Virus record (IMG/VR): IMGVR_UViG_3300046747_000434
Span: 1-41,216 of that record
From: a virus
Strand: one strand, 5' to 3'
Length of the DNA: 41,216 nt
Position numbers and translations under genes: made by a program. Of this stretch, positions 126 through 41,216 are shown one piece after another (position 1 is the stretch's first letter; every line of letters begins with the position of its first letter). The notes beneath the pieces are model-generated. The model ran no database searches. It saw nothing but the letters and a program-made list of their open reading frames with translations, and was not told the origin of the DNA.

Positions 126-127
126 TT
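1..127. repeat. Exact 127-bp terminal direct repeat (identical to 41090..41216); probably a circular-contig overlap
   Basis: Letter-by-letter identity of the first and last 127 nt. The same sequence also occurs at 31894..32020. Confidence 0.9.
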
Positions 128-131
128 CAGG

Positions 132-359
132 TCATCCTTTCGTGTTTGTTTCGTGAGCATCGAAGCACCCCGCGGCATCGAGCCCGGTGAGCAGAGTGGG
201 CGCCTCCTCACCGTGCAGCTGTCGGCAGATCGACTCAGCGGTCTGGACGAGCACAGGACGGGGCAGCGTGAGGGTGCGCAGGTAGTGCGCGATAGAGTCG
301 TGCGCCTGCGGGCGCATGGAGTGCGCACGGCACCAGGCGCGGTAGTGTGGCAGGGTCAT
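132..359 (-). CDS. Hypothetical protein, 75 aa (MTLPHYRAWC...)
   Basis: Internal ATG of ORF 132..608. It overlaps the upstream stop as TGATG. Lies immediately upstream of the family gene across the junction. Confidence 0.5.
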   Translation of the reverse strand: MTLPHYRAWCRAHSMRPQAHDSIAHYLRTLTLPRPVLVQTAESICRQLHGEEAPTLLTGLDAAGCFDAHETNTKG

Positions 360-535
360 CAGAGCACCGGCGTCCCGCCATGGCGGGCGTCGAAGTCGGC
401 CAGATCGCGCAGGGCAAGCGAGTAGGCCGCCCACTCCTCGGCGTTCGAGTCGTCTGGCAAAGAGGCCGGTGACGCAGACTTCACAGCGTCGACGATGTCG
501 TTGCGTGAGTCCCGGTAGTTGTTCTTGCTGGTCAT
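359..535 (-). CDS. Hypothetical acidic protein, 58 aa (MTSKNNYRDSRNDIVDAVK...)
   Basis: Hand-translated ORF below the 60-aa track cut-off. Its stop overlaps the next ATG (TGATG). Weak RBS. Confidence 0.45.
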   Translation of the reverse strand: MTSKNNYRDSRNDIVDAVKSASPASLPDDSNAEEWAAYSLALRDLADFDARHGGTPVL

Positions 536-648
536 GCCAATCCGTATTGCACGAGTGGTGCCACAACGAAACCATTGAGCTTTGCGTGGAGTCGATGCTC
601 AAAACCACGACATACGCGTCATGGTCTGGCTACTGCGCTAGCCACCAG

Positions 649-870
649 TCATGGCGTCAACAGCACGGTCTTCGTTCCGATCGCGAATGTGTTGCTTCGC
701 ATCAGCGCCGTCAGCTCGTTTTGCGAGTGCACGCCGAGTTTGCCGAACACGTGCTTGAGGTGATTGCGCGCGGTGTGCTTGCTGATGCCGAGCTTGGTGG
801 CGACGGCGGTGAGCGTCATGCCAGAGCACAGGCAGTCTGCGATCTCGCGCTCGCGTGGGCTGAGCTTCAT
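649..870 (-). CDS. LuxR/GerE-family helix-turn-helix transcriptional regulator (73 aa)
   Basis: LSPREREIADCLCSGMTLTAVATKLGISKHTARNHLKHVFGKLGV is a typical GerE HTH. Its ATG overlaps the stop of 867..1667 (ATGA). Confidence 0.85.
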   Translation of the reverse strand: MKLSPREREIADCLCSGMTLTAVATKLGISKHTARNHLKHVFGKLGVHSQNELTALMRSNTFAIGTKTVLLTP

Positions 871-1667
871 TTGCACGCCTCCATCAGCTCGATCAGCTTG
901 TCGGCCATGCGCGCGTGGTGCCTCCTGGCAGCAGCTCCAGCAGCGTCAGCAGCAGCGTCAGCAGCGCGAGCAGCGCGAGCAGCGCGAGCAGCTCCAGCAG
1001 CGTAATCAGCAGCGGAAGCAGCGTCAGCAGCAGCGTAAGCAGCAGCGTAAGCAGCGGAAGCAGCAGCGTAAGCAGCAGCGCGAGCAGCTCCAGCAGCGCG
1101 AGCAGCTCCAGCAGCGTAAGCAGCAGCGGAAGCAGCGCGAGAAGCAGCGCACCACTCAGTTGCGCTCGGCTCGTCTCCCGCAATGCGCCGCTCGAACAGC
1201 GCCACCACGGTAGCGATTGCGGCCTTAACTGCATCGTCAGCATGCCTGACCACGCCATGCCTCGGATCGCTGAGCATCCACACGGCGAGGCGCGGCCACA
1301 CCAGCGACAGGTCAGCGCCCGTCGTGATAGATTTCGCGAAGCGCTGCGGCCACAGCTTCGCGCGCGCCTTGGATTGCCTCTCGAACAAGCGATCCTGCAG
1401 GTATGCCAGCTCAATCGGTATGCCGAGACGCTCTGCTAGCGCCGTGTGGTTCGAATATGCGCCGATGTCCCGCTCGCGCAGGTCGACGTGATCGATGCGC
1501 GCAATGCTCCGCAGGCCGCATGCGACCGCGCAGCCGCGCCATTCCTTGCCCTCGCCGTGTCCGTACGAGCCTTGGCTGATGGCGTCCATGCGCGCGTGCC
1601 ACGCCAGTTCACGCAGGAAGCGCGCGCGGAATGCCTTATCACCGTTGTATCCGACTAGATTAGTCAT
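867..1667 (-). CDS. Ala-rich periodic-repeat protein, divergent paralog P1 (266 aa)
   Basis: C-terminal AAYAAGAARAAGAARAAAYAAASAAYAAAYAAADAASAADYAAGAARAARAARAADAA repeat. The N-terminal domain differs from the other three copies. Confidence 0.8.
   Translation of the reverse strand: MTNLVGYNGDKAFRARFLRELAWHARMDAISQGSYGHGEGKEWRGCAVACGLRSIARIDHVDLRERDIGAYSNHTALAERLGIPIELAYLQDRLFERQSKARAKLWPQRFAKSITTGADLSLVWPRLAVWMLSDPRHGVVRHADDAVKAAIATVVALFERRIAGDEPSATEWCAASRAASAAAYAAGAARAAGAARAAAYAAASAAYAAAYAAADAASAADYAAGAARAARAARAADAAADAAGAAARRHHARMADKLIELMEACK
921..1152 (-). repeat. GCT-rich (plus-strand GCAGC) coding microsatellite-like array inside P1
   Basis: Runs of gcagcagcgtaagcagc / gcgagcagc units. 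Several reading frames stay open across it (see the overlapping track ORFs 764..1213, 893..1414 and 915..1439). Confidence 0.85.
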
Positions 1668-7386: not shown

Positions 7387-7914
7387 GTGGCTACCGTATC
7401 TACCACCCGCAGAGCTGGGCAGGCGTTCGACGCCTTCGAGGCTGAGCAGTACGCGCAGGCCCGGGCGAGCGGCCAGACGATCGGCGTGTCGGCTACGTCG
7501 GCTGGAGTGGGGATGGCAGCGGCCAAGACGCTGGAGAAAGACCCGGAGGTGCGCGCGCGTATTGCCGAGCTGCGCGAGGGGTCGAAGACGATCACCACGG
7601 TCAGCCCAGCGTGGATTCTCGAGCAGCTCAAGATCAACGCACTCGAGTCGCGCGAGGGCCGCGAGTACACGACGATCAACAAGGCCGGCGAGCCTGTCGA
7701 GGTGACGAGCGCGCCGAACTACAAGGCGTCGAACGAAGCGCTCCAGATGATGTATGAGATCATCAAGACAGACGACAGCATACTGAACGGTCTGGGCGGC
7801 GGACTGCCCGCGGGTTCGAAGGCGATGATGCAGGAGATCCAGAAGCGCCTGAGCGCGCCGACTCCGCAGCCGATCATCATCACGCAGCACGAAGCCGTCG
7901 AGGCTGAGCTGTGA
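7387..7914 (+). CDS. terS: Terminase small subunit
   Basis: Sits immediately upstream of TerL. N-terminal HTH-like segment, then VSPAWILEQLKINALES, which resembles Terminase_2/P27-type small subunits. GTG start. Confidence 0.7.
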   Translation: MATVSTTRRAGQAFDAFEAEQYAQARASGQTIGVSATSAGVGMAAAKTLEKDPEVRARIAELREGSKTITTVSPAWILEQLKINALESREGREYTTINKAGEPVEVTSAPNYKASNEALQMMYEIIKTDDSILNGLGGGLPAGSKAMMQEIQKRLSAPTPQPIIITQHEAVEAEL

Positions 7915-9536
7915 TGGCCAACATCCCAGTAGTGATGGGCGCCGCCATTGGGTCGCCCATGGCGTACCGGCCGAAGTGGGTGCCGAGCAACATCCCGTGG
8001 GGCGAGTGCGACCGTGAGCGGCGCATGATGCTGAACGCTGCATGGAGCGCAGGCGTTCTCGGTCATTTGCTCACGCCGTCGCAGCTGCGCACTGACGCCA
8101 AGATGGACGCCTGGAGCGATGCGGTAGGCGATAACCAGAAGCTCAGCGACCTGGACCTGCGCAAGAAGCTGATGGGCCGCGTGTACGTGCTCGACAGCGC
8201 GCGACGCTGGGGCAAGTCGCGCTTGCTACTCAAGAGGGCGCTGGCGAAGGGGATCCGCAACAAGGGCTGGCGGATGATCTATTTCGGCCCCATCAAAAAG
8301 GAGCTGCTGAAGATCGTGCATCCGCTCATGGCTGAGCTGGTGCGCGACTGCCCGCCCGGACTGCTCGGCAAGCACCAGGGGCCAGACTGGGTGGAGAAGG
8401 AGGAGGCCTACGTTTTCAAAACAGGCTCACGTCTCGAGATCATCGGCCTGGACAAGAATCCAGACGGCGCGCGCGGAACTGGCCTTGACGCTGCGTTTGG
8501 CGATGAAGTCGCGTTCTTCGACAAGCTCGAATACCTGATCAACAGCATCATCATGCCGCAGGTCATGGGCCGGCAGCACGCGCGGCTCGAGTGCGCGAGT
8601 ACGCCGCCCGTCAGCCCGTCGCACCACTGGTCACAGAACATGGTGCCGCACGCGGTCGCGGACGGTGCGCACGACAAGCGCACGATCGAAGAGGCCGATC
8701 AGTACGACACTTCGGAGATCGAGGAGATCATCCGCCAGGTTGGCGGAGACATGGGACGCAAGCACACCGCCGTGCGTCGCGAGCTGTTCTGCGAGCACGT
8801 CACCGACGAAACGCTAGCGGTCATCCCGGAGTTCAACTACGTCAAGAGCGAGGTGGTTCGAGAAATCACCGCCCCCACGTGGCGCGACTGCTACGCGTCC
8901 ATGGATCCCGGCTGGAAAGACCACACCGCCGTGCTGTTCGGGTACTGGCATTTCGAAGAGCAGGCCTGCGTGATCGAAGACGAGATCTGCGCACCGCGCC
9001 TGAACAGCGGCGATCTCGCTGCCGAGGTGAAGCGCAAGGAGGCGTTCCTGTGGGACGGCGTCAAGCGCCGCTCGTCGCAGGGGGGCCACCCGAAGCCACA
9101 GCCGTTCCTGCGCGTTACCGACCACGATCCGCGCCTGCAGCAAGATCTCGCGATGGCGCACGGGCTCGTATTCATTCCGACGCTCAAGGACAACCTCGAG
9201 CAGCAGGTCAACGCCGTGCGTGTGGCCTTTGCCAACAAGAAGATCATCATCCACCCACGTTGCACGAAGCTTGTGCTTCACCTGCAAAACGCGGTGTGGA
9301 AGAACAGGGACGCTCACATCTTCGCTCGCGAGGGCGGGAATCTCGGGCATTTCGATACGCTCGCCGCGCTCGTGTACCTGTGGCGCGTGATGCAACAGCA
9401 CAAGAACCGCAACCCAGCACCAATCGAGGCGCGCATTTATGCTCAGCGAGAAAACACCCACCAGCACCCCACGGGAAAGCCCGCTCCCCACGCCAGCCGC
9501 TGGACGCGACGCGGAAGGAGCTACTACGTCCGCTGA
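7914..9536 (+). CDS. terL: Terminase large subunit
   Basis: Walker A-like DSARRWGKS and Walker B-like LDAAFGDEVAF, plus a C-terminal nuclease-sized domain. TGATG overlap with terS (an alternative GTG lies at 7911). Confidence 0.9.
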   Translation: MANIPVVMGAAIGSPMAYRPKWVPSNIPWGECDRERRMMLNAAWSAGVLGHLLTPSQLRTDAKMDAWSDAVGDNQKLSDLDLRKKLMGRVYVLDSARRWGKSRLLLKRALAKGIRNKGWRMIYFGPIKKELLKIVHPLMAELVRDCPPGLLGKHQGPDWVEKEEAYVFKTGSRLEIIGLDKNPDGARGTGLDAAFGDEVAFFDKLEYLINSIIMPQVMGRQHARLECASTPPVSPSHHWSQNMVPHAVADGAHDKRTIEEADQYDTSEIEEIIRQVGGDMGRKHTAVRRELFCEHVTDETLAVIPEFNYVKSEVVREITAPTWRDCYASMDPGWKDHTAVLFGYWHFEEQACVIEDEICAPRLNSGDLAAEVKRKEAFLWDGVKRRSSQGGHPKPQPFLRVTDHDPRLQQDLAMAHGLVFIPTLKDNLEQQVNAVRVAFANKKIIIHPRCTKLVLHLQNAVWKNRDAHIFAREGGNLGHFDTLAALVYLWRVMQQHKNRNPAPIEARIYAQRENTHQHPTGKPAPHASRWTRRGRSYYVR

Positions 9537-27706: not shown

Positions 27707-27871
27707 ATGGACAACGAAGCGAAGCAAGCATACACGCGGATGACAGACGCTATCACCGTGCTCTCGACGATCGCGATGCAGCTGCGCGACGCGGTGACCG
27801 ATCTGCGCGCGGTGTGCCAGGTACTCGCCATGCAGGGCGATCGGGGGGTGAGAGATGCACCCGCAGAGTGA
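27707..27871 (+). CDS. Hypothetical small protein, 54 aa
   Basis: Hand-translated. AAAGGAG RBS before the ATG. Overlaps the endolysin start. Confidence 0.35.
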   Translation: MDNEAKQAYTRMTDAITVLSTIAMQLRDAVTDLRAVCQVLAMQGDRGVRDAPAE

Positions 27872-28280
27872 CACCGCACTACTCGTGCCTGCGTTCTGGG
27901 AGCGCCTGGAGCCTGCCTTGCGCGAGCTGCGCGGCCAGGGATTCCACCCTGTGGTTCACGAGACGCTACGCTCACTGGCGCGCTCTGAGGCGCTCGTTGC
28001 AGCCGGTAAGAGTAAGTCCGTGGGCCCGTCGATGCACTGCTACGGACTGGCGGCAGACGTCGTCTGCGGAGTGCACGGGTATGACTGCAAGCGTCACCAC
28101 TGCCCGTTCTTCACCGAGTACGGGCTTGCCGTCGAGCGTCACCGTTTGACATGGGGCGGGCGGTGGAAGACGCTGGTCGACTCGCCGCACAGCCAGGCCA
28201 TACCCGTAGCGCTCCAAAACAAGGCGCGCGCGATGCCCGCTGACCAGCTAGACGCCTTCGTGCGCAGCGTACTCGGCTGA
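27855..28280 (+). CDS. Endolysin, peptidase M15 (VanY / L-Ala-D-Glu peptidase-like)
   Basis: Zn-ligand pattern H..(SMHCYGLAADV)..(DSPHSQ), typical of M15 cell-wall peptidases. Confidence 0.8.
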   Translation: MHPQSDTALLVPAFWERLEPALRELRGQGFHPVVHETLRSLARSEALVAAGKSKSVGPSMHCYGLAADVVCGVHGYDCKRHHCPFFTEYGLAVERHRLTWGGRWKTLVDSPHSQAIPVALQNKARAMPADQLDAFVRSVLG

Positions 28281-28657
28281 TGGACCCAACAACGTTAGTA
28301 GTCGCAGGTAGCACGATTGCTGTTGGCATCGGCGCTTTGCTCAAGGGATGGGGCAAGCGTGATGAGGCCAGCGCAGCCGGCGTGCTGGCGCTGGTCGGCC
28401 AGATCGAGGCACTGAACGGTCGATGTAACACGCTCGAGTCAGAGGTGCTCGTGCTGCGCGCTGATCTCGAGAAAGCCACCACGGACCACGCTGCAGAGCG
28501 GGAGCAGCGCATCCACTATGAGGGCCAGGTGAAGCTCCTACAGACCGAACTGGCGACCACCAAAGCGGCAGCGCGCAGGCTCACCGAGGAATGGGAACAG
28601 GACAAGCTTCGGGGGCGTCCAACGCACAGCAGCGAGCGTCCGGGCAAGCGGCGCTAG
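28280..28657 (+). CDS. Spanin-like protein (N-terminal TM plus coiled coil), 125 aa
   Basis: LVVAGSTIAVGIGALL membrane segment followed by a heptad-like coil. TGATG coupling to the endolysin gene. Confidence 0.5.
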   Translation: MDPTTLVVAGSTIAVGIGALLKGWGKRDEASAAGVLALVGQIEALNGRCNTLESEVLVLRADLEKATTDHAAEREQRIHYEGQVKLLQTELATTKAAARRLTEEWEQDKLRGRPTHSSERPGKRR

Positions 28658-29505
28658 GCCACCCCCGGGTACAGCCTGTCCAGCAATTCCACGCCCGGGC
28701 AGGCCATGTCGCGCAGTACCTGTAGGCACAGGTTAGCGCTCAGGACGAGGTACCGCTCACCAGCAGCGTAAGCAGCAGCGTCAGCAGCGCGAGCAGCGCG
28801 AGCAGCGCGAGCAGCGGAAGCAGCAGCGTAAGCAGCGCGAGCAGCAGCGTTAGCAGCAGCGTAAGCAGCAGCGTAAGCAGCAGCGTCAGCAGCGTTAGCA
28901 GCAGCGTAAGCAGCAGCGTAAGCAGCGCGAGCAGCAGCGTTAGCAGCAGCGTAAGCAGCAGCGTAAGCAGCAGCGTCAGCAGCGTTAGCAGCAGCGTAAG
29001 CAGCAGCGTAAGCAGCGGAAGCAGCAGCGTCAGCAGCGGGAGAAGCAGCGGAAGCAGCAGCGTAAGCAGCGGAAGCAGCGTCCTTGGTCCCCTCTTTTTC
29101 GCAGCGGTCGGCGGCCTCGCGGCAACGTTGGTGCACTGGCGAGGTGGCAGTGAACAGTTCGCGGAACAGCGTGGGCAGCAGCACACGGATGTGCGCCTCG
29201 GCGATACGGCGCGCGAAGTCCAACCCGTCGAGCGTATCGCTACCGAGCTGGGCGACTGCGATGTCGCGAAGCCCACGCGCGCGGGACTCGTCGCTCTCCC
29301 AGCGCTGCGAGTCGTTCAGCGTGATCTTGAAGCCGCGCACAACGGGGTTGACGCAGGCAGGGTCGTCGCCGAAGGGGAGGCCCATGGCTTGGCTGATGGC
29401 GGCCTCCACGCACATCTTGCCGTCCGGCTTACCCGCGCCAGTGCAAAGACCGCGCGCAAGTATCGCTTCGAATACAGGTTGGTTGAATGCTGATAGATCG
29501 GTCAT
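28654..29505 (-). CDS. Ala-rich periodic-repeat protein, paralog P2 (283 aa)
   Basis: N-terminal domain MTDLSAFNQPVFEAILARGLCTG..., a long AAYAAAYAAANAADAAAY... repeat, and a conserved ERYLVLSANLCLQVLRDMACPGVELLDRLYPG tail. Confidence 0.85.
   Translation of the reverse strand: MTDLSAFNQPVFEAILARGLCTGAGKPDGKMCVEAAISQAMGLPFGDDPACVNPVVRGFKITLNDSQRWESDESRARGLRDIAVAQLGSDTLDGLDFARRIAEAHIRVLLPTLFRELFTATSPVHQRCREAADRCEKEGTKDAASAAYAAASAASPAADAAASAAYAAAYAAANAADAAAYAAAYAAANAAARAAYAAAYAAANAADAAAYAAAYAAANAAARAAYAAASAARAARAARAADAAAYAAGERYLVLSANLCLQVLRDMACPGVELLDRLYPGVA
28756..29083 (-). repeat. GCT-codon repeat array in P2, including a perfect 90-bp tandem duplication (28831-28920 = 28921-29010)
   Basis: The block agcagcgcgagcagcagcgttagc...gcagcgta recurs exactly 90 nt later. 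Several reading frames are open across the array. Confidence 0.85.
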
Positions 29506-30431
29506 GTCAGGTTGCCTTTCGTGAGCTTCTGAATCTCGTGTCGCACCACCAAGTAGCTAGCCCATAAGCGCTGAGCTACCGGACGCTGGTGAAAGTCCGG
29601 CTTCGCGTACATCACCTCGCGCAGGAAGCCAGGTGGCACCTCGGTGTACTTCTTGCCGGGGTACCGCTTCGCATCGGCGGCGAAAACTGGCGGATCCATC
29701 GGGGGCGCGTGCAGTCCGTGCTCGTCTGCTGCGCCGGAGGCGATGCTGAACGCGTTGAATATCTCATCGCACAGGTCGTTGTGGCGGCCCACCCAGTCGA
29801 CGTTAGTAGTCGCAGAAGATTCCGTGCGGGACGTCGTCCCAGTCACCGAGATCGCAGCTGGGGCACCGACCGTTGGCGCGGAGCCTGGTGCCGTGTTCTG
29901 GGCATTCTTCTGGGGCTGCTCTTTTGGGCGCTCCTCGTGGTCACCTCCACCGGCCACGTCGTCAAGCGACCGCGCAACCTTGCCCGGGCGTTTCGCGGCA
30001 TGCTCGAACCGCTCGTTAGAGTCGTGCTCAGGGTCCTCTGTGACGCCACCAGCGAGCTGGCAGACGCGCAGCATGGCCGTGCGGTCGAGCGCTGTGCTCG
30101 CGATGTATGCGGCCTTGTCGCCAGCGTGAGTTGTCGCCGCGAAGGCGTACTCACGAATCTCACCGCTCTCGTGGATCAGCTCGAACACTCCGCGCCACAA
30201 CCAGACAATACTCGCTCCAGCCTTGTCGGCAACAGGCTGCGCGCACACGAAGATCACATCTTTTTGCACGAGGGTGAGACCGTACGTGAGTAGCGCCTCC
30301 CGTGCGCCGCTTGTCAGCACGTGTTCGTGGCCGACGTATGGGTAGTTCTGATGCGCGTTTTTGCCCGCCTTGTTGACGACAACCGCGCACGCGATGCGCG
30401 CCAGTTTCAGCGCTTTCCCAAGTTCGCTCAC
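29502..30431 (-). CDS. erf: Erf-like single-strand annealing protein
   Basis: N-terminal KNAHQNYPYVGHEHVLTSGAREALLTYGLTLVQ and DKAAYIASTALDRTAML fit the ERF pattern. A disordered C-terminal half. GTGA coupling to the exonuclease gene. Confidence 0.7.
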   Translation of the reverse strand: MSELGKALKLARIACAVVVNKAGKNAHQNYPYVGHEHVLTSGAREALLTYGLTLVQKDVIFVCAQPVADKAGASIVWLWRGVFELIHESGEIREYAFAATTHAGDKAAYIASTALDRTAMLRVCQLAGGVTEDPEHDSNERFEHAAKRPGKVARSLDDVAGGGDHEERPKEQPQKNAQNTAPGSAPTVGAPAAISVTGTTSRTESSATTNVDWVGRHNDLCDEIFNAFSIASGAADEHGLHAPPMDPPVFAADAKRYPGKKYTEVPPGFLREVMYAKPDFHQRPVAQRLWASYLVVRHEIQKLTKGNLT

Positions 30432-31144
30432 AGCTCACCTCTCTTTAGCCTGTCGACCTCAGCCATGAAAATAGGCACTTCAGCGCGAATCCTCGCGATC
30501 ACGGCTTCGTGCCTACGAATCGGGTACGCGCGCAGCTTGAAGCACGGTGCGCAGAGATGCAGCACGAGTAGCGCGCCCCACTCCGCGCCGGTCACCGCCA
30601 GCTCAGTCTGTACCTGCAGCTGGTAGTCCAGCGGCGGCCCCTTAGACCACACAGCAGTGGACTCCGCGCCGCTTTTCTGCGGCTTGCAGTCCTCGGTAGC
30701 CTGGCACGTGGTGGCCTTGATCTGCACGATTGAGAGGCCGAGGTCATCCGCGTTCACGTCGACGCTCTCGACGTGCGGAACGTACAGCTCAAACTTTCCT
30801 CCGGCCTTGCGCCAGCGCACACGCAGATCACTTTGTGGAGTGAGCAACAGGTAGTCCGGAGTCGCACCGAGCAGAGGACACGACGCGTCCACGCGCAGCA
30901 CGCCAGCCTCGTGCAGCTTCCACCCGAACTTGCGCATCGCCATACGTGCAATCGCCGGCTCGAGATCGAGGCCGATGTCGGTCTGCTCGCTACCGGCCCA
31001 CTCCTCGGCGAGTCCGGCCTTCTCCATGCGCAATTGCTCGCGCGTCTTGTACTTCGACTCGCCAAGTATAGCGGCAACGTCGCTGGCAGTTACGAGCAGC
31101 CGGCGCGCAGCGAGCCACGCTGCGCGGTCTGAGCTATGTGTCAT
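30428..31144 (-). CDS. YqaJ-type (lambda Exo-like) recombination exonuclease
   Basis: RRLLVTASDVAAILGESKYKTREQLRMEKAG is a YqaJ N-terminal motif. Adjacent to the annealase gene. Confidence 0.8.
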   Translation of the reverse strand: MTHSSDRAAWLAARRLLVTASDVAAILGESKYKTREQLRMEKAGLAEEWAGSEQTDIGLDLEPAIARMAMRKFGWKLHEAGVLRVDASCPLLGATPDYLLLTPQSDLRVRWRKAGGKFELYVPHVESVDVNADDLGLSIVQIKATTCQATEDCKPQKSGAESTAVWSKGPPLDYQLQVQTELAVTGAEWGALLVLHLCAPCFKLRAYPIRRHEAVIARIRAEVPIFMAEVDRLKRGEL

Positions 31145-31284
31145 CCGGCCCGCCTCCTGACATTGAGAACGAAATGGTTAGCTACGCCAAGAGCGACCAT
31201 CAGCGCGCAACCAAATGCAGATCCATAAACAGCCTGCGATACGGCTGCGCCAAGCCAACACGCACCGCTTAGCCACAGCAGCAT
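31141..31284 (-). CDS. Small hydrophobic (membrane) protein, 47 aa
   Basis: MLLWLSGACWLGAAVSQAVYGSAFGCALMVALGVANHFVL. TGATG overlap with the P3 stop and ATGA overlap with the exonuclease start. Confidence 0.5.
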   Translation of the reverse strand: MLLWLSGACWLGAAVSQAVYGSAFGCALMVALGVANHFVLNVRRRAG

Positions 31285-32018
31285 CACGCTGCCCCCGGGT
31301 ACAGGCGATCCAGCAGCTCCACACCTGGGCAGGCCATGTCGCGCAGTACCTGTAGGCACAGGTTAGCGCTCAGCACAAGGTAACGCTCACCAGCAGCTCC
31401 AGCAGCGCGAGCAGCTCCAGCAGCGTAAGCAGCAGCGGAAGCAGCGTAAGCAGCGTAAGCAGCAGCAGCGCGATCAGCGGAAGCAGCGTAAGCAGCGTAA
31501 GCAGCAGCAGCGCGATCAGCGTAAGCAGCGCGAGAAGCGTAAGCAGCAGCGTGAGCAGCGTCAGCAGCGCAAGCAGCAGCGTGATAAGCAGCGTGCTTGC
31601 TCCCCTCTTTTTCGCAGCGGTCGGCGGCTTCGCGGCAGCGTTGGTGCGCTGGTGACGCGTCGGTGAACAGCTCGCGGAACAGCGTGGGCAGCAGCACACG
31701 GATGTGCGCCTCGGCGATACGGCGCGCGAAGTCCACACCATCGAGCGTGTCGCTACCGAGTTGCGCGACTGCGATGTCGCGAAGCCCACGCGCGCGGGAA
31801 TCGTCGCTCTCCCAGCGTGGAGAGTCGTTGAGCGTGATCTTGAATCTGCGCACAGCAGGGTGGACACACGCGGGGTCATCGCCGAACGGGAGGCCCATCG
31901 CCTGCGAGATAGCGGCCTCCACGCACATCTTGCCATCGGCGCGTCCCACGCCAGTGCACAACCCACGCGCAAGTATCGCCTCGAATACAGGTTGGTTGAA
32001 TGCTGATAGATCGGTCAT
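31284..32018 (-). CDS. Ala-rich periodic-repeat protein, paralog P3 (244 aa)
   Basis: The ATG at 32018 follows a GGAG RBS and overlaps the upstream stop (ATGA). Same N- and C-terminal modules as P2 and P4. Confidence 0.85.
   Translation of the reverse strand: MTDLSAFNQPVFEAILARGLCTGVGRADGKMCVEAAISQAMGLPFGDDPACVHPAVRRFKITLNDSPRWESDDSRARGLRDIAVAQLGSDTLDGVDFARRIAEAHIRVLLPTLFRELFTDASPAHQRCREAADRCEKEGSKHAAYHAAACAADAAHAAAYASRAAYADRAAAAYAAYAASADRAAAAYAAYAASAAAYAAGAARAAGAAGERYLVLSANLCLQVLRDMACPGVELLDRLYPGAA
31391..31592 (-). repeat. GCT-codon repeat array in P3
   Basis: Encodes AAYHAAACAADAAHAAAYASRAAYADRAAAAYAAYAASADRAAAAYAAYAASAAAYAAGAARAAGAAG. Contains an internal duplication of the DRAAAAYAAYAAS unit. 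Confidence 0.8.
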
Positions 32019-32392
32019 TTGGAGTCTCCAATCCACGGTCCACGACCTAGGCGTTCGCGACCTTCGTCTGACATTGCAAAGCTGACCATCTTATCCTGTG
32101 AGTCGGCCACCCAAGCGCGTCCGCTCGCTTGGCAGTCCCATCCGGTGTAATCGCAGCCGGCTTCGAGGTAGAAGTAGCGCCCGTCCTTGAGGCGACCACA
32201 GCACACCCACGAAGGACCGTCGTTTTCGCCGTCGCTGCTCGCGTAGATCACGTCCACGTCGGCAAGCCCGAACGTATCCACGCTGCAATCACTACCCGCC
32301 GACAGCTCCGGCACCCCGGCGTTGTACGCGCCGCCAGAAAAACCAAAGGCCTCTTTCCAGTCGAAGTCGTTTATCATCTGCTCGAAATTCAT
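32015..32392 (-). CDS. Hypothetical protein, 125 aa (MNFEQMINDFDWKEAFGF...)
   Basis: AGGTGAGG RBS before the ATG at 32392. Coupled to P3. Confidence 0.6.
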   Translation of the reverse strand: MNFEQMINDFDWKEAFGFSGGAYNAGVPELSAGSDCSVDTFGLADVDVIYASSDGENDGPSWVCCGRLKDGRYFYLEAGCDYTGWDCQASGRAWVADSQDKMVSFAMSDEGRERLGRGPWIGDSK

Positions 32393-33711: not shown

Positions 33712-34176
33712 ATGAGTAAGGACAGCGACGTAAGATTCACCCCACAGCACGTGCTCAACGTCGTGCGCGAGTTCGATGAGATTGTGTGCGACCCGTGCAC
33801 GGTTGCGAGCAACCCGGCGGGGGCTAATCTGTTCTACACTGAGGCCGATAACGGGCTTGTGCAGCCGTGGGGCGGAGGGCTTACGTTCGTCAACAACCCA
33901 TACTCACGTGGTCAGATCTTTCCGTGGGCTGAGAAATGCGCGCTAGAAGCCAAGATCGGACTGGAGATCATCCAGCTCATCCCGGCTGACATGTCGACGA
34001 TATACACCAAGTTCCTGTTCGGTAAGGCGAACGCTGTTGCGTTCTGGGACAAGCGCATCGTCTTCGACGGCTCCAATGGCGCGAAGTTCGGAAGCGCTTT
34101 TTGGTACTTTGGCGATCGGCAAGGCCGCTTCAAACGCGTATTCGAGCCACACGCCACCGTGCTATTCCTCCGGTAG
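33712..34176 (+). CDS. dam: Phage-type DNA N6-adenine methyltransferase (Dam family, PF05869-like)
   Basis: RFTPQHVLNVV...VCDPC...GLVQPWGGGLTFVNNPYSRG (an NPPY-like motif)...IQLIPADMST. No cognate endonuclease is present. Confidence 0.8.
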   Translation: MSKDSDVRFTPQHVLNVVREFDEIVCDPCTVASNPAGANLFYTEADNGLVQPWGGGLTFVNNPYSRGQIFPWAEKCALEAKIGLEIIQLIPADMSTIYTKFLFGKANAVAFWDKRIVFDGSNGAKFGSAFWYFGDRQGRFKRVFEPHATVLFLR

Positions 34177-34179: not shown

Positions 34180-35781
34180 ATGCACTACGCGCATACAGAC
34201 CTGTTCGCCATGGTAGAGCCTGACCGCGTCGCTGAGATGCCTGCGCTCGGTTTGCGTTATTATCAACAAGAGGCGCGCGAAGCCGTTGCGCGTGTGCACG
34301 AGGCGCATCGCGGCGCGCTTGTGGTGTTGCCTACGGGCACGGGTAAGAGCAGATTGCTGGGCGCTATCACATGGGATGGCCACATCAGGCATCAGCGCGC
34401 ACTCGTGCTGTGCCCGACGATTACGCTTGTGCGCCAGATGTACAGCGACTTGCGCAAGCTCGGCCTGAACGTCGAGATGGAGCAGGCGTCGAACCGTGCA
34501 CGAAGGCCGCTGCCACCGGTCGTGGTGGCATGCGTCGCGTCCATGCGTGGCGACCGGCTAGCTTCGTTCGATCCGTACGACTTCGACCGCATCGGAGTGG
34601 ACGAGGCGCACCGCTGCATCTCGCCGCTGTATGAGGCGATCTTCGCGCACTTCCACGCGGCCAAGCTGATCGGGCTCACCGCAACGCCTTCGCGCTCTGA
34701 TGGCGTGTCGCTTGGCAACGTCTTCGAAGAGACGGCCTACACTATGACCATGCTGCGCGCCATCAGCGAAGGGTGGCTCGTGCCGTTGCGCTTCAAGACG
34801 GCGGTCACGGACTTCGACCCGAAGGCGCTGCGCACGCTGGCCGGCGAGGTTGACCCGTCGAGTGTGGCAGCGGAGATCACGCGCTCCGGGCTCTTGCACG
34901 AGGCTGCCAACACGCTGGCAGAGCTGAGCGCTGGCGAGCGCACGGTCGCGTTCCTGCCCACCGTGGCAAGCTCGAAGGCGTTCGTCGCTGAGCTGATCGC
35001 GCGCGGCATCGAGGCTGCGCACGTGGATGCGAGCACGCCCGAGCAAGCGCGTAACGAGATGTTCGCCGCGTTCGCAGCGGGGACCACGCGCGTGATCGCG
35101 AACGTGGGGATCCTGTGCGAGGGCTGGGATATGCCCGCGTGCTCGGTGGTCGCGCTGCTCAACCCCACCAAGAGCTGGCAGCGCCTTACCCAGATGATCG
35201 GCCGCATCACGCGCCTGGCGCCCGGCAAAGAGTTCGCCCTCGTGCTCGACTTCTGCCCGGGCAGGCTGCGCAAAGGCCGCCTGGCGAGCCCTGCGGACGC
35301 GCTTGCGGGCAAGATGCTGGACGATGCGGTGCACGACCAGATGGCCACGGAAGGCGATCTCGCCACGGCTATCGCGGACGCTGAGACGAGCGCAGCGGAG
35401 ATCGAAGAGAAGAAGCGCAAGGCGCTCGAGAAGGCCGAGGCGCGCAAGCAGCGTGTAAGAGAGCTGGCAGAGCTGGCGCGAAAAAAGAAGTACCGCTACG
35501 GCGTCCAGGACCACGATGCGGCGGCCATCCTGGGCGGCGCTGGTGGCGAGCAGCCTGGCGAGATGCGCTCGCACGACGTCGAGCCGTCAGAGGACGAGCT
35601 GCGCAAGGCGGCTGGCATCTGCAGCGTCAAGCAGAGCCATATCCTGCGACGGTGGGGGCTCAACCCGCGCATGTCGCGCGCGCTCGCTGGCGAGGTGATG
35701 GGCGCGCTCTCCGAGACGAACTGGCAGGTGTTGCCCGAGCGGATCAAAAACAACCCAATTTTCAAAGCGACCAGCGTATGA
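34180..35781 (+). CDS. Superfamily-2 DEAD/DEAH-box helicase
   Basis: Walker A VLPTGTGKS, motif II VDEAHR and motif III LTATP, plus a helicase C-terminal domain (ANVGILCEGWDMP, QMIGRITR). Confidence 0.9.
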   Translation: MHYAHTDLFAMVEPDRVAEMPALGLRYYQQEAREAVARVHEAHRGALVVLPTGTGKSRLLGAITWDGHIRHQRALVLCPTITLVRQMYSDLRKLGLNVEMEQASNRARRPLPPVVVACVASMRGDRLASFDPYDFDRIGVDEAHRCISPLYEAIFAHFHAAKLIGLTATPSRSDGVSLGNVFEETAYTMTMLRAISEGWLVPLRFKTAVTDFDPKALRTLAGEVDPSSVAAEITRSGLLHEAANTLAELSAGERTVAFLPTVASSKAFVAELIARGIEAAHVDASTPEQARNEMFAAFAAGTTRVIANVGILCEGWDMPACSVVALLNPTKSWQRLTQMIGRITRLAPGKEFALVLDFCPGRLRKGRLASPADALAGKMLDDAVHDQMATEGDLATAIADAETSAAEIEEKKRKALEKAEARKQRVRELAELARKKKYRYGVQDHDAAAILGGAGGEQPGEMRSHDVEPSEDELRKAAGICSVKQSHILRRWGLNPRMSRALAGEVMGALSETNWQVLPERIKNNPIFKATSV

Positions 35782-35954: not shown

Positions 35955-36937
35955 CCGAACCGCGCGTAACTGTCGTGCAGGAACAGCGCATTATCGGCTG
36001 GCCGGACGAGCCCGGAGCCGAGCCGAGACCACAGGATCGCGCTTACGTGCTGCCGATCTCCAAGGCACTCGCGCGCAGCTACACGACAGACGCTCATTTC
36101 GCGCAGTACGTGACGCCCAACGCACGACGCCTCAAGACAGCAGCAGCATCGCTCCTACGCGTGCGGCTTGGCGTGATCGTGCTCGATCTCGACTGCGCTG
36201 AGGCACACGCGAGCGGTGATCCCGCCCCGGAGTCGTGGCGCATCGACGTGCGTCGCCAGGCAACGCAGCTACTTCGCGCCCACGGCCGTGGCTACTACTA
36301 CGAGACGCGGGGCGGGGCGCGCATCGTGTACCTGCAGCCTGCGCCCTACAAGATCAGCTCAGCCGCTGATGCGCTCCAGTGGCGCCAGGACTACGCCGTC
36401 ACGTGCGCATGGATGCGCCGCAGCTTCGGGCTCGAGGTGGACGTCGCGTGCTCCGACTGGCCTCGGTTGTTCCGCCTGCCACGCGCCACCCGGAAAGGCA
36501 GCACGGTGTCTGAGGACTACCTCACGCTTGGCCGCTCCGACAACATCGGCGCGCTGAGCTTCACGCCAGAGACGTGCGATCTCGACCTGGCCCGTGAGCT
36601 ACTCCCCCGTGCATTCGACGAGCGGCGCAGCGCATTCGCGCCCGAGTTGGCAGATGGCAACGGCGTGCTGTTCCATGCGTTGCGCGCGCGCGGCGCGATA
36701 CTGCGGCCGATGGGCGGCAAGGCGTACGTGATCCGCTGTCCCAACGAAGCGCAGCACAGCGCAGGCGGGAAGGCGAAAGACCGCGCAACCGTGCTGTATC
36801 TGCCAAGTACGGGGCAGTCGATAGGCCTGATATGGTGCCTCCACGCGCACTGCGGCAATACGAAACCAGTTGACTGGCTGAAGCATTTCAGCCGTGATGA
36901 GCTGAACGCGGCTGATGCTGCGATGAAGGGGAAGTGA
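35951..36937 (+). CDS. Primase/primase-polymerase-like replication protein with a C-terminal zinc-binding motif
   Basis: VIVLDLDC acidic motif, ETRGGARIVY and FRLPRATR, plus C-terminal CPNEAQHS...CLHAHCG, as seen in phage/plasmid primases. Confidence 0.5.
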   Translation: MTEPRVTVVQEQRIIGWPDEPGAEPRPQDRAYVLPISKALARSYTTDAHFAQYVTPNARRLKTAAASLLRVRLGVIVLDLDCAEAHASGDPAPESWRIDVRRQATQLLRAHGRGYYYETRGGARIVYLQPAPYKISSAADALQWRQDYAVTCAWMRRSFGLEVDVACSDWPRLFRLPRATRKGSTVSEDYLTLGRSDNIGALSFTPETCDLDLARELLPRAFDERRSAFAPELADGNGVLFHALRARGAILRPMGGKAYVIRCPNEAQHSAGGKAKDRATVLYLPSTGQSIGLIWCLHAHCGNTKPVDWLKHFSRDELNAADAAMKGK

Positions 36938-37449
36938 TGCCGAAACCGATACTCGTGTTGCTACAGGGTGAGATGATGCCGATCAAGCACGCTGCCGACA
37001 AGCTGGGTGTGGCGCAAATCACTGTGAAGCGCCGCCACCTGCGTGGTGAGCCGGTGGACATGCCGCTCTATCACTCCGGACGTGGGCGCCGTGGTGGCGT
37101 CAAACACGGTCCGGCCGACTTCGACATTGACGCTGAATGGGCTGACGAGTGCGTTGCCGAATCCGTGCGCCTGCATCCCGACGGCATGACGCTGCACGAG
37201 GTTGGCGTGTTGGTCGGACTGAGTCGCGAGCGCATCCGGCAGATCGAGGAGAGCGCGCTGCGCAAGATCCGCCTGCTCGGGCTGAGCGAACGAGAGGTGA
37301 AGCGCGCGCTGTTCGCCGACCTGCAAGTCGCGCACGAGTCGTTTGACGAACGCCACCCACCGGGTCACTGGGGCGTTGTTGCGATCGCTCCGCATTGCCG
37401 TCTTCAGCGCCCTAGCGCTAGGCCATCCGGTTTGCTGGTGACGACGTGA
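36937..37449 (+). CDS. Sigma-70 region-4-like HTH protein
   Basis: MTLHEVGVLVGLSRERIRQIEESALRKIR is a canonical sigma region 4.2 motif. No region 2 was recognised. Confidence 0.6.
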   Translation: MPKPILVLLQGEMMPIKHAADKLGVAQITVKRRHLRGEPVDMPLYHSGRGRRGGVKHGPADFDIDAEWADECVAESVRLHPDGMTLHEVGVLVGLSRERIRQIEESALRKIRLLGLSEREVKRALFADLQVAHESFDERHPPGHWGVVAIAPHCRLQRPSARPSGLLVTT

Positions 37450-37799
37450 AAACGCAGTTCTCGTTTCGCCTAGAAGGTCCACCCGTCAGCAAAGCGCGCC
37501 CTCGCGTCACGCTACGAGGCACGTACACGCCAGCCAAGACGCGCACAGGGGAGAAGGCGCTCAAGCTTGTGGCGCAGTCGCGGCGCCCCGCTGACTGGCC
37601 GATGGACGAGCGCTACATGCTTACGATCATCGTTGGCGTGGACAACAACAGGCGCGCCGACTGCGATAATTTCGCGAAGTTGATCCTGGACGCTCTGATT
37701 GGCGTTGCATACCGCGACGACAGTCAGGTCGACGTGCTTTGGATTCAGCGCAAGCGCGGCGTCGAGCCGTTCACCAGTGCAATCGTGGAGGTCATGTAA
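37446..37799 (+). CDS. rusA: RusA-family Holliday junction resolvase
   Basis: GPPVSKARPR...DCDNFAKLILDALIGVAYRDDSQV is the RusA signature. GTGA overlap. Confidence 0.85.
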   Translation: MKTQFSFRLEGPPVSKARPRVTLRGTYTPAKTRTGEKALKLVAQSRRPADWPMDERYMLTIIVGVDNNRRADCDNFAKLILDALIGVAYRDDSQVDVLWIQRKRGVEPFTSAIVEVM

Positions 37800-39118: not shown

Positions 39119-39853
39119 ATGACACGACTACTGATTTTGGCAGCGCTGCTGTTCGCCCCCGCGCTCGCCAGCGCGCAGATCAATGTGAGCATCGCCGGCC
39201 TGTCGAGCCTGCAGGTGGATGGCATCGCTCCGGGGAACACGTGCGCCGACACGGTAAGCGGAACCCTGACGTGCACGTACGGAGGGTTTTACTTCCAGGC
39301 CACGCCGTTGCTTGGCACCGCGACGCGAGAGTGCCAGTGCTACCCCGGCAACACCGGTCCAACCGGCGCTACGGGGGCCACAGGGGCGGCTGGCTCTTCT
39401 GGTGCGACAGGAGCGACGGGCCCCGCTGGAGCGGCATCTGGTGGCTTCTACCGCGACTCGAGCGGCGATCAGGTGATCGGCCTGTATCGCGTCGACAGCG
39501 TTCCGAACTACTGGGATGGTGACGTGTGGTGGCAGGTCAGCTCGAGTACTGGACTCGCTACGCCAGACGACATAGGTCAGGCGCTGCGGTACACAGGAGC
39601 ATCGTGCACAGGTAGCGTGTTCGGATCCGACTTCGGAGGCAACCGAACGTACCAGTATCGCACGAAGATGGGCACGCTCGAGATATGGGGGCCGGTGGGC
39701 AGCTTCTCATACGCCGGCACCTGCTACGGGTGGAATGGATCGAGCTGCACTGCCATTTCGTGCCTCAGTGGTCCACTGGTGGAGCTGGCGCATTTCACCA
39801 GCCCACCAGATTTGAGCAGCTACGACTTGCCGCTCACGTTTGTGGGGGACTGA
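39119..39853 (+). CDS. Secreted collagen-like (Gly-X-Y repeat) protein, 244 aa
   Basis: Signal peptide MTRLLILAALLFAPALASAQ. GNTGPTGATGATGAAGSSGATGATGPAGAAS is a run of about 10 uninterrupted G-X-Y triplets. Confidence 0.8.
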   Translation: MTRLLILAALLFAPALASAQINVSIAGLSSLQVDGIAPGNTCADTVSGTLTCTYGGFYFQATPLLGTATRECQCYPGNTGPTGATGATGAAGSSGATGATGPAGAASGGFYRDSSGDQVIGLYRVDSVPNYWDGDVWWQVSSSTGLATPDDIGQALRYTGASCTGSVFGSDFGGNRTYQYRTKMGTLEIWGPVGSFSYAGTCYGWNGSSCTAISCLSGPLVELAHFTSPPDLSSYDLPLTFVGD

Positions 39854-40127: not shown

Positions 40128-40462
40128 TCCTCACTGAGGTGTAACGGTCCATCGTGGTCGGGCAAAGAAGCCGCTTCCGCGTAGTCACAAGCGACCAACT
40201 CGGCCGCTCGGGATGGTGAGTGTTGTGCCATGTATCGCTCGTGTAGTCGGCAGGCCGTCTCAGCAAGTTCGCGGCTCTCCCAGTCACACGCGCCGAGTGC
40301 ATCCCGTGCATCGATCGCGACCACGCGCGCCTGCGTGGGCATGCCGTTGAGGTACGGGGCAGCTCCGATCCACTGAGCTGACCAGCCGCCCGTGGATGTA
40401 CGCTCCACGCGATACTCTCCGGTGGTCGTCTCGGCGGTGAGCTGGATTGGTTCGAAGTGCAT
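40118..40462 (-). CDS. Hypothetical protein, 114 aa (MHFEPIQLTAETTTGEYRVERT...)
   Basis: Internal ATG of ORF 40118..40537. It overlaps the P4 stop as TGATG. Confidence 0.55.
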   Translation of the reverse strand: MHFEPIQLTAETTTGEYRVERTSTGGWSAQWIGAAPYLNGMPTQARVVAIDARDALGACDWESRELAETACRLHERYMAQHSPSRAAELVACDYAEAASLPDHDGPLHLSEEWR

Positions 40463-41214
40463 CACGTTACCCCCGGGTACAGGCGATCCAGCAGCTCCAC
40501 ACCTGGGCAGGCCATGTCGCGCAGTACCTGTAGGCACAGGTTAGCGCTCAGCACAAGGTAACGCTCACCAGCAGCTCCAGCAGCGGAAGCAGCGTCAGCA
40601 GCAGCGCGAGCAGCGGAAGCAGCAGCGTAAGCAGCGCGAGCAGCAGCGTTAGCAGCAGCGTAAGCAGCAGCGTAAGCAGCAGCGTCAGCAGCGTTAGCAG
40701 CAGCGTAAGCAGCAGCGTAAGCAGCGGAAGCAGCAGCGTCAGCAGCGGGAGAAGCAGCGGAAGCAGCAGCGTAAGCAGCGGAAGCAGCGTCCTTGGTCCC
40801 CTCTTTTTCGCAGCGGTCGGCGGCCTCGCGGCAACGTTGGTGCACTGGCGAGGTGGCAGTGAACAGTTCGCGGAACAGCGTGGGCAGCAGCACACGGATG
40901 TGCGCCTCGGCGATACGGCGCGCGAAGTCCACACCATCGAGCGTGTCGCTACCGAGTTGCGCGACTGCGATGTCGCGAAGCCCACGCGCGCGGGAATCGT
41001 CGCTCTCCCAGCGTGGAGAGTCGTTGAGCGTGATCTTGAATCTGCGCACAGCAGGGTGGACACACGCGGGGTCATCGCCGAACGGGAGGCCCATCGCCTG
41101 CGAGATAGCGGCCTCCACGCACATCTTGCCATCGGCGCGTCCCACGCCAGTGCACAACCCACGCGCAAGTATCGCCTCGAATACAGGTTGGTTGAATGCT
41201 GATAGATCGGTCAT
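40462..41214 (-). CDS. Ala-rich periodic-repeat protein, paralog P4 (250 aa); a mosaic of P3 and P2
   Basis: The N-terminal 119 aa are identical to P3. The linker and repeat are identical to P2 minus one 90-bp unit. The 3' end is identical to P3. Confidence 0.85.
   Translation of the reverse strand: MTDLSAFNQPVFEAILARGLCTGVGRADGKMCVEAAISQAMGLPFGDDPACVHPAVRRFKITLNDSPRWESDDSRARGLRDIAVAQLGSDTLDGVDFARRIAEAHIRVLLPTLFRELFTATSPVHQRCREAADRCEKEGTKDAASAAYAAASAASPAADAAASAAYAAAYAAANAADAAAYAAAYAAANAAARAAYAAASAARAAADAASAAGAAGERYLVLSANLCLQVLRDMACPGVELLDRLYPGVT
40568..40791 (-). repeat. GCT-codon repeat array in P4
   Basis: Same unit structure as the P2 array, but with a single copy of the 90-bp unit. Confidence 0.85.
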
Positions 41215-41216
41215 TT

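Follow-up and report, generated by a model that had tools for sequence, protein, structure and literature searches.

In the 41,216-nucleotide (nt) stretch of DNA analyzed here (IMG/VR virus record IMGVR_UViG_3300046747_000434, positions 1 to 41,216; hereafter, the window), four minus-strand genes, which we call P1 to P4, encode proteins built on one plan, with an all-alpha head, an alanine-rich tract of 68 to 107 residues, and a short tail helix. We have high confidence that these are genuine genes of two large, uncharacterized phage and prophage families with a common head-hairpin-tail plan, and we are likewise highly confident that the DNA of the tracts has been shaped by slippage and recombination. 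As to what the proteins do, the explanation that we favor, with a probability of about 0.4, is that each one is a stand-alone early cytoplasmic factor in which the head and tail are kept constant, while the hairpin serves as an evolvable contact arm directed at a variable target in the host or in a rival element. The genes and their parts are as follows.

867..1667, minus strand: P1, 266 amino acids (aa); head-A, aa 1-168 (1164-1667); tract, aa 176-247 (927-1142); tail ...MADKLIELMEACK (870-926)
28654..29505, minus strand: P2, 283 aa; head-B, aa 1-138 (29092-29505); tract, aa 143-249 (28759-29079); tail helix, aa 250-283 (28657-28758)
31284..32018, minus strand: P3, 244 aa from ATG; head-B (31605-32018); tract (31389-31592); tail (31287-31388)
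40462..41214, minus strand: P4, 250 aa; head-B (40801-41214); tract (40567-40788); tail (40465-40566)

Two head families on one protein plan

The four open reading frames (ORFs) lie where a first-pass annotation of the same DNA had placed them, with the translations that it quoted, and its estimate that they take up about 7.5% of the genome agrees with our count of 3,141 nt out of 41,089 (7.6%). The two modules that it saw as common to P2, P3, and P4 are also there, namely, a head of about 138 aa and an exact 32-aa tail, ERYLVLSANLCLQVLRDMACPGVELLDRLYPG; the protein identity to P2 is 83% for P3 and 94% for P4. Its proposal of a single four-copy family, in contrast, has to be abandoned, as P2 to P4 represent one head family and P1 a second one (PHROG 3416), with only the tract-and-tail plan in common. 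The P1 head is not alignable with that of P2 to P4 (hhalign probability 0.1%, which led us to reject homology between head-A and head-B), and between the families, an alignment is obtained for the tail only (hhalign 95%, E 3e-8); thus, there are two families and not one.

The invariant residues of head-B are G19, G23, G25, C32, E34, D47, P49, C51, V52, K60, N64, D65, W69, R75, Q86, G88, F97, P111, and C135. All of them are carried by P2, P3, and P4, which a head-B profile search of the window (hmmsearch) recovers with E values of 2e-54 to 4e-55, whereas P1 does not match head-B. After the Ala tract, the head-B family has a tail of the form [DE][KR]YLxLSAxLxLxVLR[DE]hxxPG, found as ERYLVLSANLCLQVLRDMACPGVELL in P2 to P4, and its residues L253, L264, P270, and G271 are invariant in the P2 family alignment. 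Head-A, of about 165 aa, has the invariants H24, C46, C50 (GCAVxC), H74, D92, E96, and P107, all of which are present in P1; in this family, the Ala tract is followed by a tail of the ADKLIELLEAA type, which corresponds to the MADKLIELMEACK of P1. Judging from these residues, a metal site in the heads is possible, especially in the case of the Cys2His2 set of head-A. P1 matches PHROG 3416, a family with no assigned function, at E 2.9e-10, only over profile positions 101-213 of 248, and P2 to P4 match it weakly, through the tract only. As a separate observation, all three B-type copies read GCTGCTGGTGAGCG at their tract/tail junctions (28759-28775, 31389-31405, and 40567-40583), and this contains GCTGGTGA, which agrees with the Chi site of E. 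coli at 7 of 8 positions.

Both families are large. At least 719 homologues of P2 and at least 304 homologues of P1 with the same architecture were found, all of them "hypothetical", and of ten NCBI members whose source names were looked up, none carries a name. The head-B profile recovers 1,652 clusters (50% identity) among 1.84 billion representatives, from phages and prophages of many phyla. The best 150 of these 1,652 clusters are 108 to 337 aa long, with the head N-terminal in most, and among these 150, there are no domain fusions, as none is long enough for an added domain. In IMG/VR phage contigs, head-B is present in 239 confirmed stretches, and in genomes or metagenome-assembled genomes (MAGs), it is found in Acidobacteriota (Bryobacterales), Bradyrhizobium, Afipia, Devosia, Sphingomonadales, Actinomycetota, Mucilaginibacter, Verrucomicrobia, Cyanobacteria, and Melainabacteria, while Caulobacter phage Cr30 (gp001) is the only cultured phage found with a head-B gene. 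Head-A occurs in 13 Xanthomonas phage records, including those of KPhi1, phiXaf18, MYK3, NEB7, and XapPhi1-6. The sequences are thus already public as hypothetical proteins in databases, with one head type catalogued as PHROG 3416.

The reality of the genes follows from the conservation of head and tail in one frame across tracts of any length. Long alternative-frame ORFs do run over the tracts (28740-29276, 31370-31972, and 40548-41168, all on the minus strand, and 915-1439 on the plus strand), and an ORF picker weighted by the G+C content of third codon positions (GC3) prefers such frames because GCT lowers GC3. The three minus-strand frames were excluded as genes by the conservation of head and tail in the Ala frame. 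Automatic annotation may miscall genes with such tracts elsewhere in the same way.

Composition and codon use of the tracts

The tracts of P1 to P4 are 72, 107, 68, and 74 residues long and consist of 65 to 71% Ala. The A-A-x or A-A-A-x periodicity noted in the first-pass annotation is plain to see, as the spacing of the non-Ala residues is almost only 3 or 4. It had also been suggested that such spacing would place these side chains on one face of an alanine helix. We examined this idea through the helical moment of the non-Ala positions at 100 degrees, in comparison with shuffles. The values are 0.77 for P2 and 0.82 for P4, with a mean of 0.36 and a maximum of 0.56 to 0.61 for the shuffles, and P1 peaks at 105 degrees with a moment of 0.69. 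The one-face arrangement therefore holds for three of the four proteins, but not for P3, in which the moment is weak (0.39).

In both families, the non-Ala residues of the tracts include 21 to 26% Tyr, 17 to 25% Asp, 9 to 13% Ser, and 8 to 12% Arg, while Leu, Ile, Met, Phe, Lys, and Pro are strongly depleted; in the heads, Tyr makes up 1 to 3%. Given that the same composition is found on two unrelated head families, it is unlikely to be neutral. An alphabet of Tyr, Ala, Asp, and Ser alone reportedly suffices for the high-affinity paratopes of synthetic antibodies (Fellouse, Wiesmann, and Sidhu, PNAS 2004).

The codons are even more uniform than the residues. Within the tracts of the window, GCT accounts for 222 of the 225 Ala codons, whereas its share is 15% for eight large window ORFs and about 9% for the heads, in a genome of 63% G+C. 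The description of the repeats as GCT-encoded is thus correct for this genome, but it does not extend to the families, whose members are equally mono-codon but mostly use GCC. For 59 homologues, the share of the top Ala codon has a median of 0.94 in the tract versus 0.27 in the head of the same gene, and the preferred tract codon is GCC in 37, GCT in 12, GCA in 5, and GCG in 5. Cultured phages are mono-codon as well; for instance, gp37 of phiXaf18 uses GCG for 33 of 34 codons, and gp001 of Cr30 uses GCT for 45 of 47. The use of one Ala codon per tract, with the codon varying among genes, points to slippage and unequal recombination, through which units are born, lost, and homogenized; the repeat units themselves are 9, 12, and 21 nt long according to Tandem Repeats Finder (TRF).

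It could also be proposed that the element works at the level of nucleic acids, with (GCT)n-rich DNA or (GCU)n RNA acting, for example, as a hot spot for recombination, an origin, or a structured RNA, and with the Ala frame being incidental. The extreme use of GCT in a 63% G+C genome fits this idea, CTG/CAG-type repeats form slipped structures, and the GC3-weighted gene caller prefers other frames across the tracts. Nevertheless, we consider it hardly credible, as homologues use GCC, GCG, or GCA, so that no nucleotide motif is conserved, a finding that largely refutes it. Furthermore, it is the Ala frame in which head and tail are conserved, across 1,652 clusters, and the RNA of the P2 tract folds no better than dinucleotide shuffles (z = +1.37). 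A GCT-specific DNA signal and a structured RNA were accordingly ruled out, the former by the other Ala codons of the homologue tracts and the latter by this folding score.

Tract turnover among relatives

Slippage and recombination would produce a single Ala codon per tract, a tract that changes faster than head and tail, and block exchange between copies in one genome. In three contigs, each from a different sample, a stretch of about 2.9 kb is the same apart from in-frame indels of 18, 42, and 21 nt and six substitutions, all of them in the tract. Across the family, tract length ranges from 20 to 153 residues, and in the NEB7/XapPhi3 lineage, the head is visibly similar by eye to that of the related phages KPhi1, phiXaf18, and MYK3, and the tract is longer and completely different. 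In a pair of proteins from contigs of 41,996 and 41,258 bp (P0037 and P0004, respectively), the head is the same, and the tract of P0037 reads PPTPPTPPP...RRRRLRRL, which is a frameshifted reading of the same repeat; this could stem either from slippage that added or removed a number of nucleotides not divisible by three or from a sequencing error.

The tracts also interrupt assemblies. In 25 of 83 cases, homologous genes run off the contig end inside the tract, and in the GenBank record of XapPhi1 (PP391659.1), the reading frame reaches the record end inside the tract, while the match in XapPhi2 (PP391660.1) is equally near the record end. Four XapPhi records (XapPhi1, 2, 4, and 6) lack an annotation of the gene, so the tract disturbs the assembly and annotation of isolates too.

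Duplication, mosaicism, and reality of the copies

Within the window, traces of the same processes can be seen inside the tracts, the clearest being the following feature.

28817..29017, minus strand: exact 90-nt tandem duplication in the P2 tract, 2.22 copies, unit encoding AAYAAAYAAANAADAAAYAAAYAAANAAAR; 110-nt self-match run at period 90

TRF arrays in the P2 tract are located at 28761-29070, P4 holds a single copy of the 90-nt unit of P2, and the P3 tract has an exact 42-nt tandem duplication of its own at 31433-31521. P4 as a whole is a block mosaic in which nt 1-349 are of the P3 type (41 consecutive informative sites) and nt 350-608 of the P2 type (71 sites), with exact runs of 347 nt in common with P3 and 315 nt in common with P2. 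Its first 608 nt contain no private changes, and its tail is P3-like with private changes. Such a perfect mosaic points to a very recent gene conversion or duplication, or else to an assembly path that is partly responsible for the P4 interior. In addition, exact runs of 44 to 55 nt are common to the P1 tract and the tracts of P2 to P4, even though the heads are unrelated. These runs may reflect inter-tract exchange, which would explain the presence of GCT in all four tracts.

The first-pass annotation had taken the upkeep of four copies as a sign of strong selection, but this was not borne out, given the P4 mosaic without private changes over its first 608 nt and the lack of a second copy near any of the other 83 loci, each of which was retrieved with flanks of up to 10 kb. 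Over that span, only this window holds more than one copy. Two copies are also encoded in a Bryobacterales MAG (proteins P0056 and P0057), with heads that are 99 to 100% identical and tracts that differ, making it a second multi-copy case.

Whether the copies are real at all is a fair question, as the ends of the contig coincide with them. A repeat search and a reading of both ends showed that window positions 1-127 are 100% identical to 41090-41216 and to 31894-32020. The identity of the two termini indicates that the assembly is circular, with a length of 41,089 bp and a k=127-style overlap, and the closure falls within the 5' end common to P3 and P4, where the 127-mer is present three times. 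Thus, the copy number could be an assembly artefact, with one or two real loci having been duplicated or chimerized and with P4 in particular being a false path through a collapsed repeat. The coincidence of the contig end with the exact boundary of the P3/P4 common sequence and its thrice-occurring 127-mer speaks for this, as does the perfect P3/P2 block mosaic of P4. The same is true of the tracts that break assemblies in 25 of the 83 loci and of the XapPhi1 and XapPhi2 isolate records, in which the match lies within about 240-255 nt of the record end. Nevertheless, we find an artefact very unlikely indeed. The P2, P3, and P4 loci have distinct 5' and 3' flanks each, more than 100 sites distinguish P2 from P3, and private differences are present in the tail of P4. 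Moreover, an independent Logan contig (SRR26077926_1275177) corresponds to window positions 29476-31321 with 100% identity and breaks off at the points from which the paralogues have one and the same sequence, 30 nt inside P2 and 38 nt inside the tail of P3, which implies that the assembly graph branches there into more than one context. Only the P4 interior (nt 350-608) is left in doubt.

Predicted structures and searches for known relatives

AlphaFold2 models of P2 and P1 were built with the family alignments, and both are all-alpha. The P2 model has a mean predicted local distance difference test score (pLDDT) of 88.4 and a predicted template modeling score (pTM) of 0.86, with a hairpin of helices 181-224 and 229-266 and a tail at pLDDT 96-98, whereas in the P1 model, the corresponding values are 83.6 and 0.80, and the hairpin is formed by helices 169-215 and 220-263. 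Across both models, the pLDDT of the tail is 95-98. The tract is thus confidently predicted to be a long antiparallel helical hairpin (helix-turn-helix) in P1 and P2, and the tail probably docks back on the head.

The first-pass annotation could not place the proteins in any named, characterized family, and neither could we, as nothing was found in Pfam, NCBIfam, or PADLOC or, by sequence or by fold, in the PDB, and the match to PHROG 3416 was the only one to any of the profile collections. Pfam gave no family at E<=1 for the whole proteins or for the heads alone, NCBIfam gave only low-complexity noise far below the cut-offs, and PADLOC had no match for P1 and P2, the two copies scanned. Searches of the PDB with three alignments (hmmsearch) gave best E values of 0.024-0.063, over short stretches only, and the best Foldseek E values against the PDB were 3.2 for P2 and 1.1 for P1, with template modeling scores of at most 0.25. 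When the P2 model was compared with BFVD by Foldseek, only uncharacterized family members were found. Among the titles and abstracts listed for alanine-rich phage repeat proteins, PHROG 3416, Cr30, and Xanthomonas phages, none bears on these genes. On inspection by eye, we also set aside a beta-clamp-binding motif in the tail, given that the register misfits and that the window copies do not conserve the residues. We rate the families as outside known kinds, on the basis of absent matches and unusual features and not of a demonstrated new function.

Possible roles: a contact arm, a rod, or a diversification scaffold

In the explanation that we favor, a conserved all-alpha head (B in P2 to P4 and A in P1) is followed by the Ala-tract hairpin and then by a conserved amphipathic C-terminal helix, which would return to the head. 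The 9-, 12-, and 21-nt units are created, deleted, and homogenized by replication slippage and by unequal or paralogue recombination. The gene would be expressed together with early replication, recombination, and accessory genes, and the protein would act alone in the cytoplasm. The hairpin would be a projecting arm, in which a single stripe of Tyr, Asp, Ser, Asn, and Arg on an Ala helix would provide an easily re-tuned contact surface. The target of this arm might be a variable host or rival-element factor, with host takeover or counter-defense as its role, and the three B-type copies, which combine near-identical heads with different arms, could give a wider target range. Both the binding surface and the counter-defense role are what we infer from these features.

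Several observations weigh against this explanation. Neither head is tied by homology to any activity, and the return of the tail to the head is read from pLDDT and pTM alone. The differences between the tracts of metagenomic contigs could in part be short-read assembly errors, and although the tract differs in 19 of 19 protein pairs whose heads are at least 98% identical, the database merges proteins above 90% identity, which makes this figure too high. The cultured phages KPhi1, phiXaf18, and MYK3, from three continents, differ by 0.2-0.5%, with 2-4 point changes in the gene, and their tracts are identical in protein, with no indels. Some members are nearly without a tract, such as P0049 (173 aa) and P0106 (a 26-residue tract), which suggests that head and tail may work without the arm. 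Finally, multi-copy carriage is not a general feature, given that no second copy was seen within up to 10 kb on either side of the other 83 loci.

Some of these observations fit better with the notion that the head, together with the tail, is the whole functional unit, for instance, an accessory factor in replication or recombination or a small enzyme that depends on a metal, and that the hairpin is a low-constraint rod, spacer, or oligomerization element. The variability of the tracts would then reflect the high slippage of repetitive DNA, and the extra copies would be recent, nearly neutral duplications. This is consistent with the strictly invariant polar and Cys/His residues in both heads, with the near absence of the tract in some members, with a tract composition that is conserved while its sequence is not, and with the very young age of the third copy suggested by the lack of private substitutions over 608 nt of P4. 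It also agrees with the recurrence of both head types right after VirE/VapE primases or beside exonuclease/annealase genes. Nevertheless, for a neutral spacer, it would not be expected that two families with unrelated heads both have Tyr enriched 7-19-fold and Leu, Ile, Met, Phe, and Lys all but missing, nor would a tract with 100% protein identity across three diverged Xanthomonas phages, and the presence of the same tract-plus-tail module on two unrelated heads suggests that the module has a role of its own. We therefore see this notion as unlikely, if well worth keeping in mind.

The contact-arm explanation could be taken one step further, in that the proteins might represent a new type of diversification scaffold, with a constant head and tail and a stripe that is rewritten by slippage and paralogue recombination, without a reverse transcriptase, in order to retarget a binder rapidly. 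Such a binder would be directed at variable host defense or takeover targets in phages and prophages of many phyla, and a genome such as this one would keep a small panel of arms on one head. We regard this extension as a distinctly doubtful proposition.

Genome layout and neighboring genes

The other features of the window that bear on the location of the four genes are the following.

132..608, minus strand: 158-aa ORF, no assigned function, the sole gene between P1 and P4 (from the ORF list)
7911-9536, plus strand: terminase large subunit
up to ~27 kb, plus strand: structural genes (from the ORF list)
27855-28280, plus strand: M15 endolysin
7911-28657, plus strand: virion module, from terminase to lysis
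29502..30431, minus strand: Erf-like single-strand annealing protein, between P3 and P2 (phrog_155, E 4e-10)
30428..31144, minus strand: YqaJ-type exonuclease, directly downstream of P3 (Pfam PF09588, E 3.4e-14)
33712-34176, plus strand: Dam methyltransferase
34180-35781, plus strand: superfamily 2 (SF2) helicase
36934-37449, plus strand: sigma-70 region-4 protein
37446-37799, plus strand: RusA

As the first-pass annotation had it, none of the four genes belongs to the virion module; they are part of early, recombination, or accessory operons and appear to be translationally coupled to their neighbors, with an ATGA overlap with the upstream gene at P1, P2, and P3 and a TGATG overlap with the downstream gene at P3 and P4. 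One leftward operon has the order P3, YqaJ exonuclease, Erf-like annealase, P2. P1 and P4 form another leftward operon across the circular junction, with the single 158-aa gene in between, for which there was no Pfam, PHROG, or PADLOC match. Among the window ORFs scanned, there is no reverse transcriptase or integrase; the genome encodes one Cro/CI-type helix-turn-helix (HTH) protein, and no near-identical phage was found in INPHARED. Scans of IMG/VR and of the JGI metagenomes for exact patterns of this phage gave no match either.

Elsewhere, the genes of both families are always found among small early or DNA-metabolism genes, for example, after an integrase/repressor/Cro-like switch, in a prophage with a PDDEXK nuclease, or beside exonuclease/annealase genes. 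A VirE/VapE-type primase gene lies directly upstream of a head-A gene (phiXaf18 gp37, L107 4995-5849) and of a head-B gene (L108 3001-3684) in unrelated phages, and the head genes may be positionally associated with the replication module. When five neighbors on each side were compared across 84 loci, no conserved partner gene was found, the largest cluster being present in 3 of the 84. The roles that had been suggested for the proteins (host takeover, counter-defense, superinfection exclusion, or modulation of nucleic-acid or recombination machinery) are thus not told apart by any conserved partner gene or fusion.

The company of recombination genes raises the possibility of a DNA mimic or an inhibitor of a host nuclease or recombination complex, analogous to lambda Gam, P22 Abc2, or T7 gp5.9. 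In its favor, P3 and P2 bracket the YqaJ exonuclease and the Erf-like annealase, a prophage carries another member close to a PDDEXK nuclease, and lambda Gam is also all-helical; in addition, two-thirds of the family tracts are net negative, with a median net charge of -3 to -4 over about 65 residues. Nevertheless, the counts of Arg and Asp in the tracts of P1 to P4 are 6/4, 5/4, 4/3, and 2/3, and this roughly neutral charge argues against a DNA mimic. The charge density is also far below that of known DNA mimics, with 16 B-type and 7 A-type tracts being net positive, the linkage to recombination genes is not conserved across the 84 loci, and neither Gam nor any other PDB entry is matched in sequence or fold. 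We therefore consider a mimic or inhibitor of this kind very unlikely.

Two further genes deserve mention in their own right. The small protein encoded at 36934-37449 (plus strand), directly upstream of the RusA resolvase gene (37446-37799, plus strand), has two sigma-70 region-4-like HTH motifs (E 1e-13) and may be a phage-encoded transcription factor for late genes. A 244-aa ORF at 39119-39853 (plus strand), just before the end of the operon that contains P4, has a weak match to a collagen triple-helix repeat (Pfam E 6.5e-4).

Implications

If the hairpin is a tunable binding arm, it would represent a second route to targeted protein diversification in phages, one that is based on repeats and independent of diversity-generating retroelements (DGRs). 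It would also be a scaffold whose alphabet is close to minimal, with Tyr, Asp, Ser, and Arg added to Ala, and would have a bearing on the phage-host arms race and on binder engineering. Regardless of whether this is so, two large families have now been defined, with 1,652 clusters for one head, that have no Pfam model, structure, or function, and that systematically break metagenomic and even isolate assemblies; in their tracts, a GC3-weighted ORF picker took the wrong frame. Given that cultured carriers exist (Caulobacter phage Cr30 and Xanthomonas phages KPhi1, phiXaf18, and NEB7), these ideas are directly testable.

Comparison with known systems

The closest parallels are themselves hypothetical proteins. 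Gp001 of Cr30 (YP_009098759.1), which is probably the top BFVD fold match of P2 (A0A067XQQ9), resembles P2 in the order of head, AAD/AAY tract, and tail, in its single preferred Ala codon, and in a head that is 41.8% identical over residues 1-117. It differs from P2 in being an uncharacterized single copy in a 156-kb T4-like phage, with an unrelated tract sequence. Gp37 of phiXaf18 and gp60 of KPhi1 resemble P1, as they have head-A (28-29% identity for gp37 over 89% of the P1 head length), and gp37 also has a mono-codon tract of the SAARWAARSAESAA type and a short tail. In contrast to the fast-changing tracts found elsewhere, the gp37-type tract of Xanthomonas phages is stable between isolates.

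With lambda Gam and P22 Abc2, the proteins have in common a position beside exonuclease/annealase genes in an early operon. They do not resemble them in sequence or fold, however, their linkage to such genes is not kept across loci, and the tracts of the window copies lack an acidic character. A DNA mimic of the Ocr, ArdA, or Gam type, which would have a dense and patterned negative charge, was rejected in view of the Arg/Asp counts and the family median of -3 to -4, and a secondary-channel factor of the Gre/DksA type was rejected in view of the range of tract lengths (20-153), the absence of a conserved tip, and the lack of a fold match. Type I (alanine-rich helical) antifreeze proteins of fish, in which the resemblance is one of composition only, also have more than 60% Ala and one helix face marked at a spacing of 3-4, whereas the proteins described here are intracellular phage proteins with a head domain and a hairpin, without a Thr ladder and without homology to them.

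Simple-sequence contingency loci and the variable tandem-repeat proteins of bacteria are similar in their short perfect units, their in-frame gain and loss, their variation between otherwise identical genomes, and their homogenized codons. Differences in repeat number of this kind were found in the three metagenomic contigs (identical flanks and three in-frame indels) and not among KPhi1, phiXaf18, and MYK3. Unlike those loci, the variable part here is a cytoplasmic helical hairpin of a phage early protein and not a surface antigen, and as the units are multiples of three, there would be no on/off switching. A DGR was rejected for this genome because there is no reverse transcriptase in the scanned ORFs of the window and no template/variable repeat pair, the only long repeats being the paralogues. 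The likeness to the variable proteins of DGRs lies in the combination of a phage protein, a conserved scaffold, and a localized, fast-diversifying patch rich in Tyr, Asp, Ser, and Asn. The difference is that such a patch would be rewritten here by unit indels and recombination instead of adenine mutagenesis, on a helical fold instead of a C-type lectin or immunoglobulin fold.

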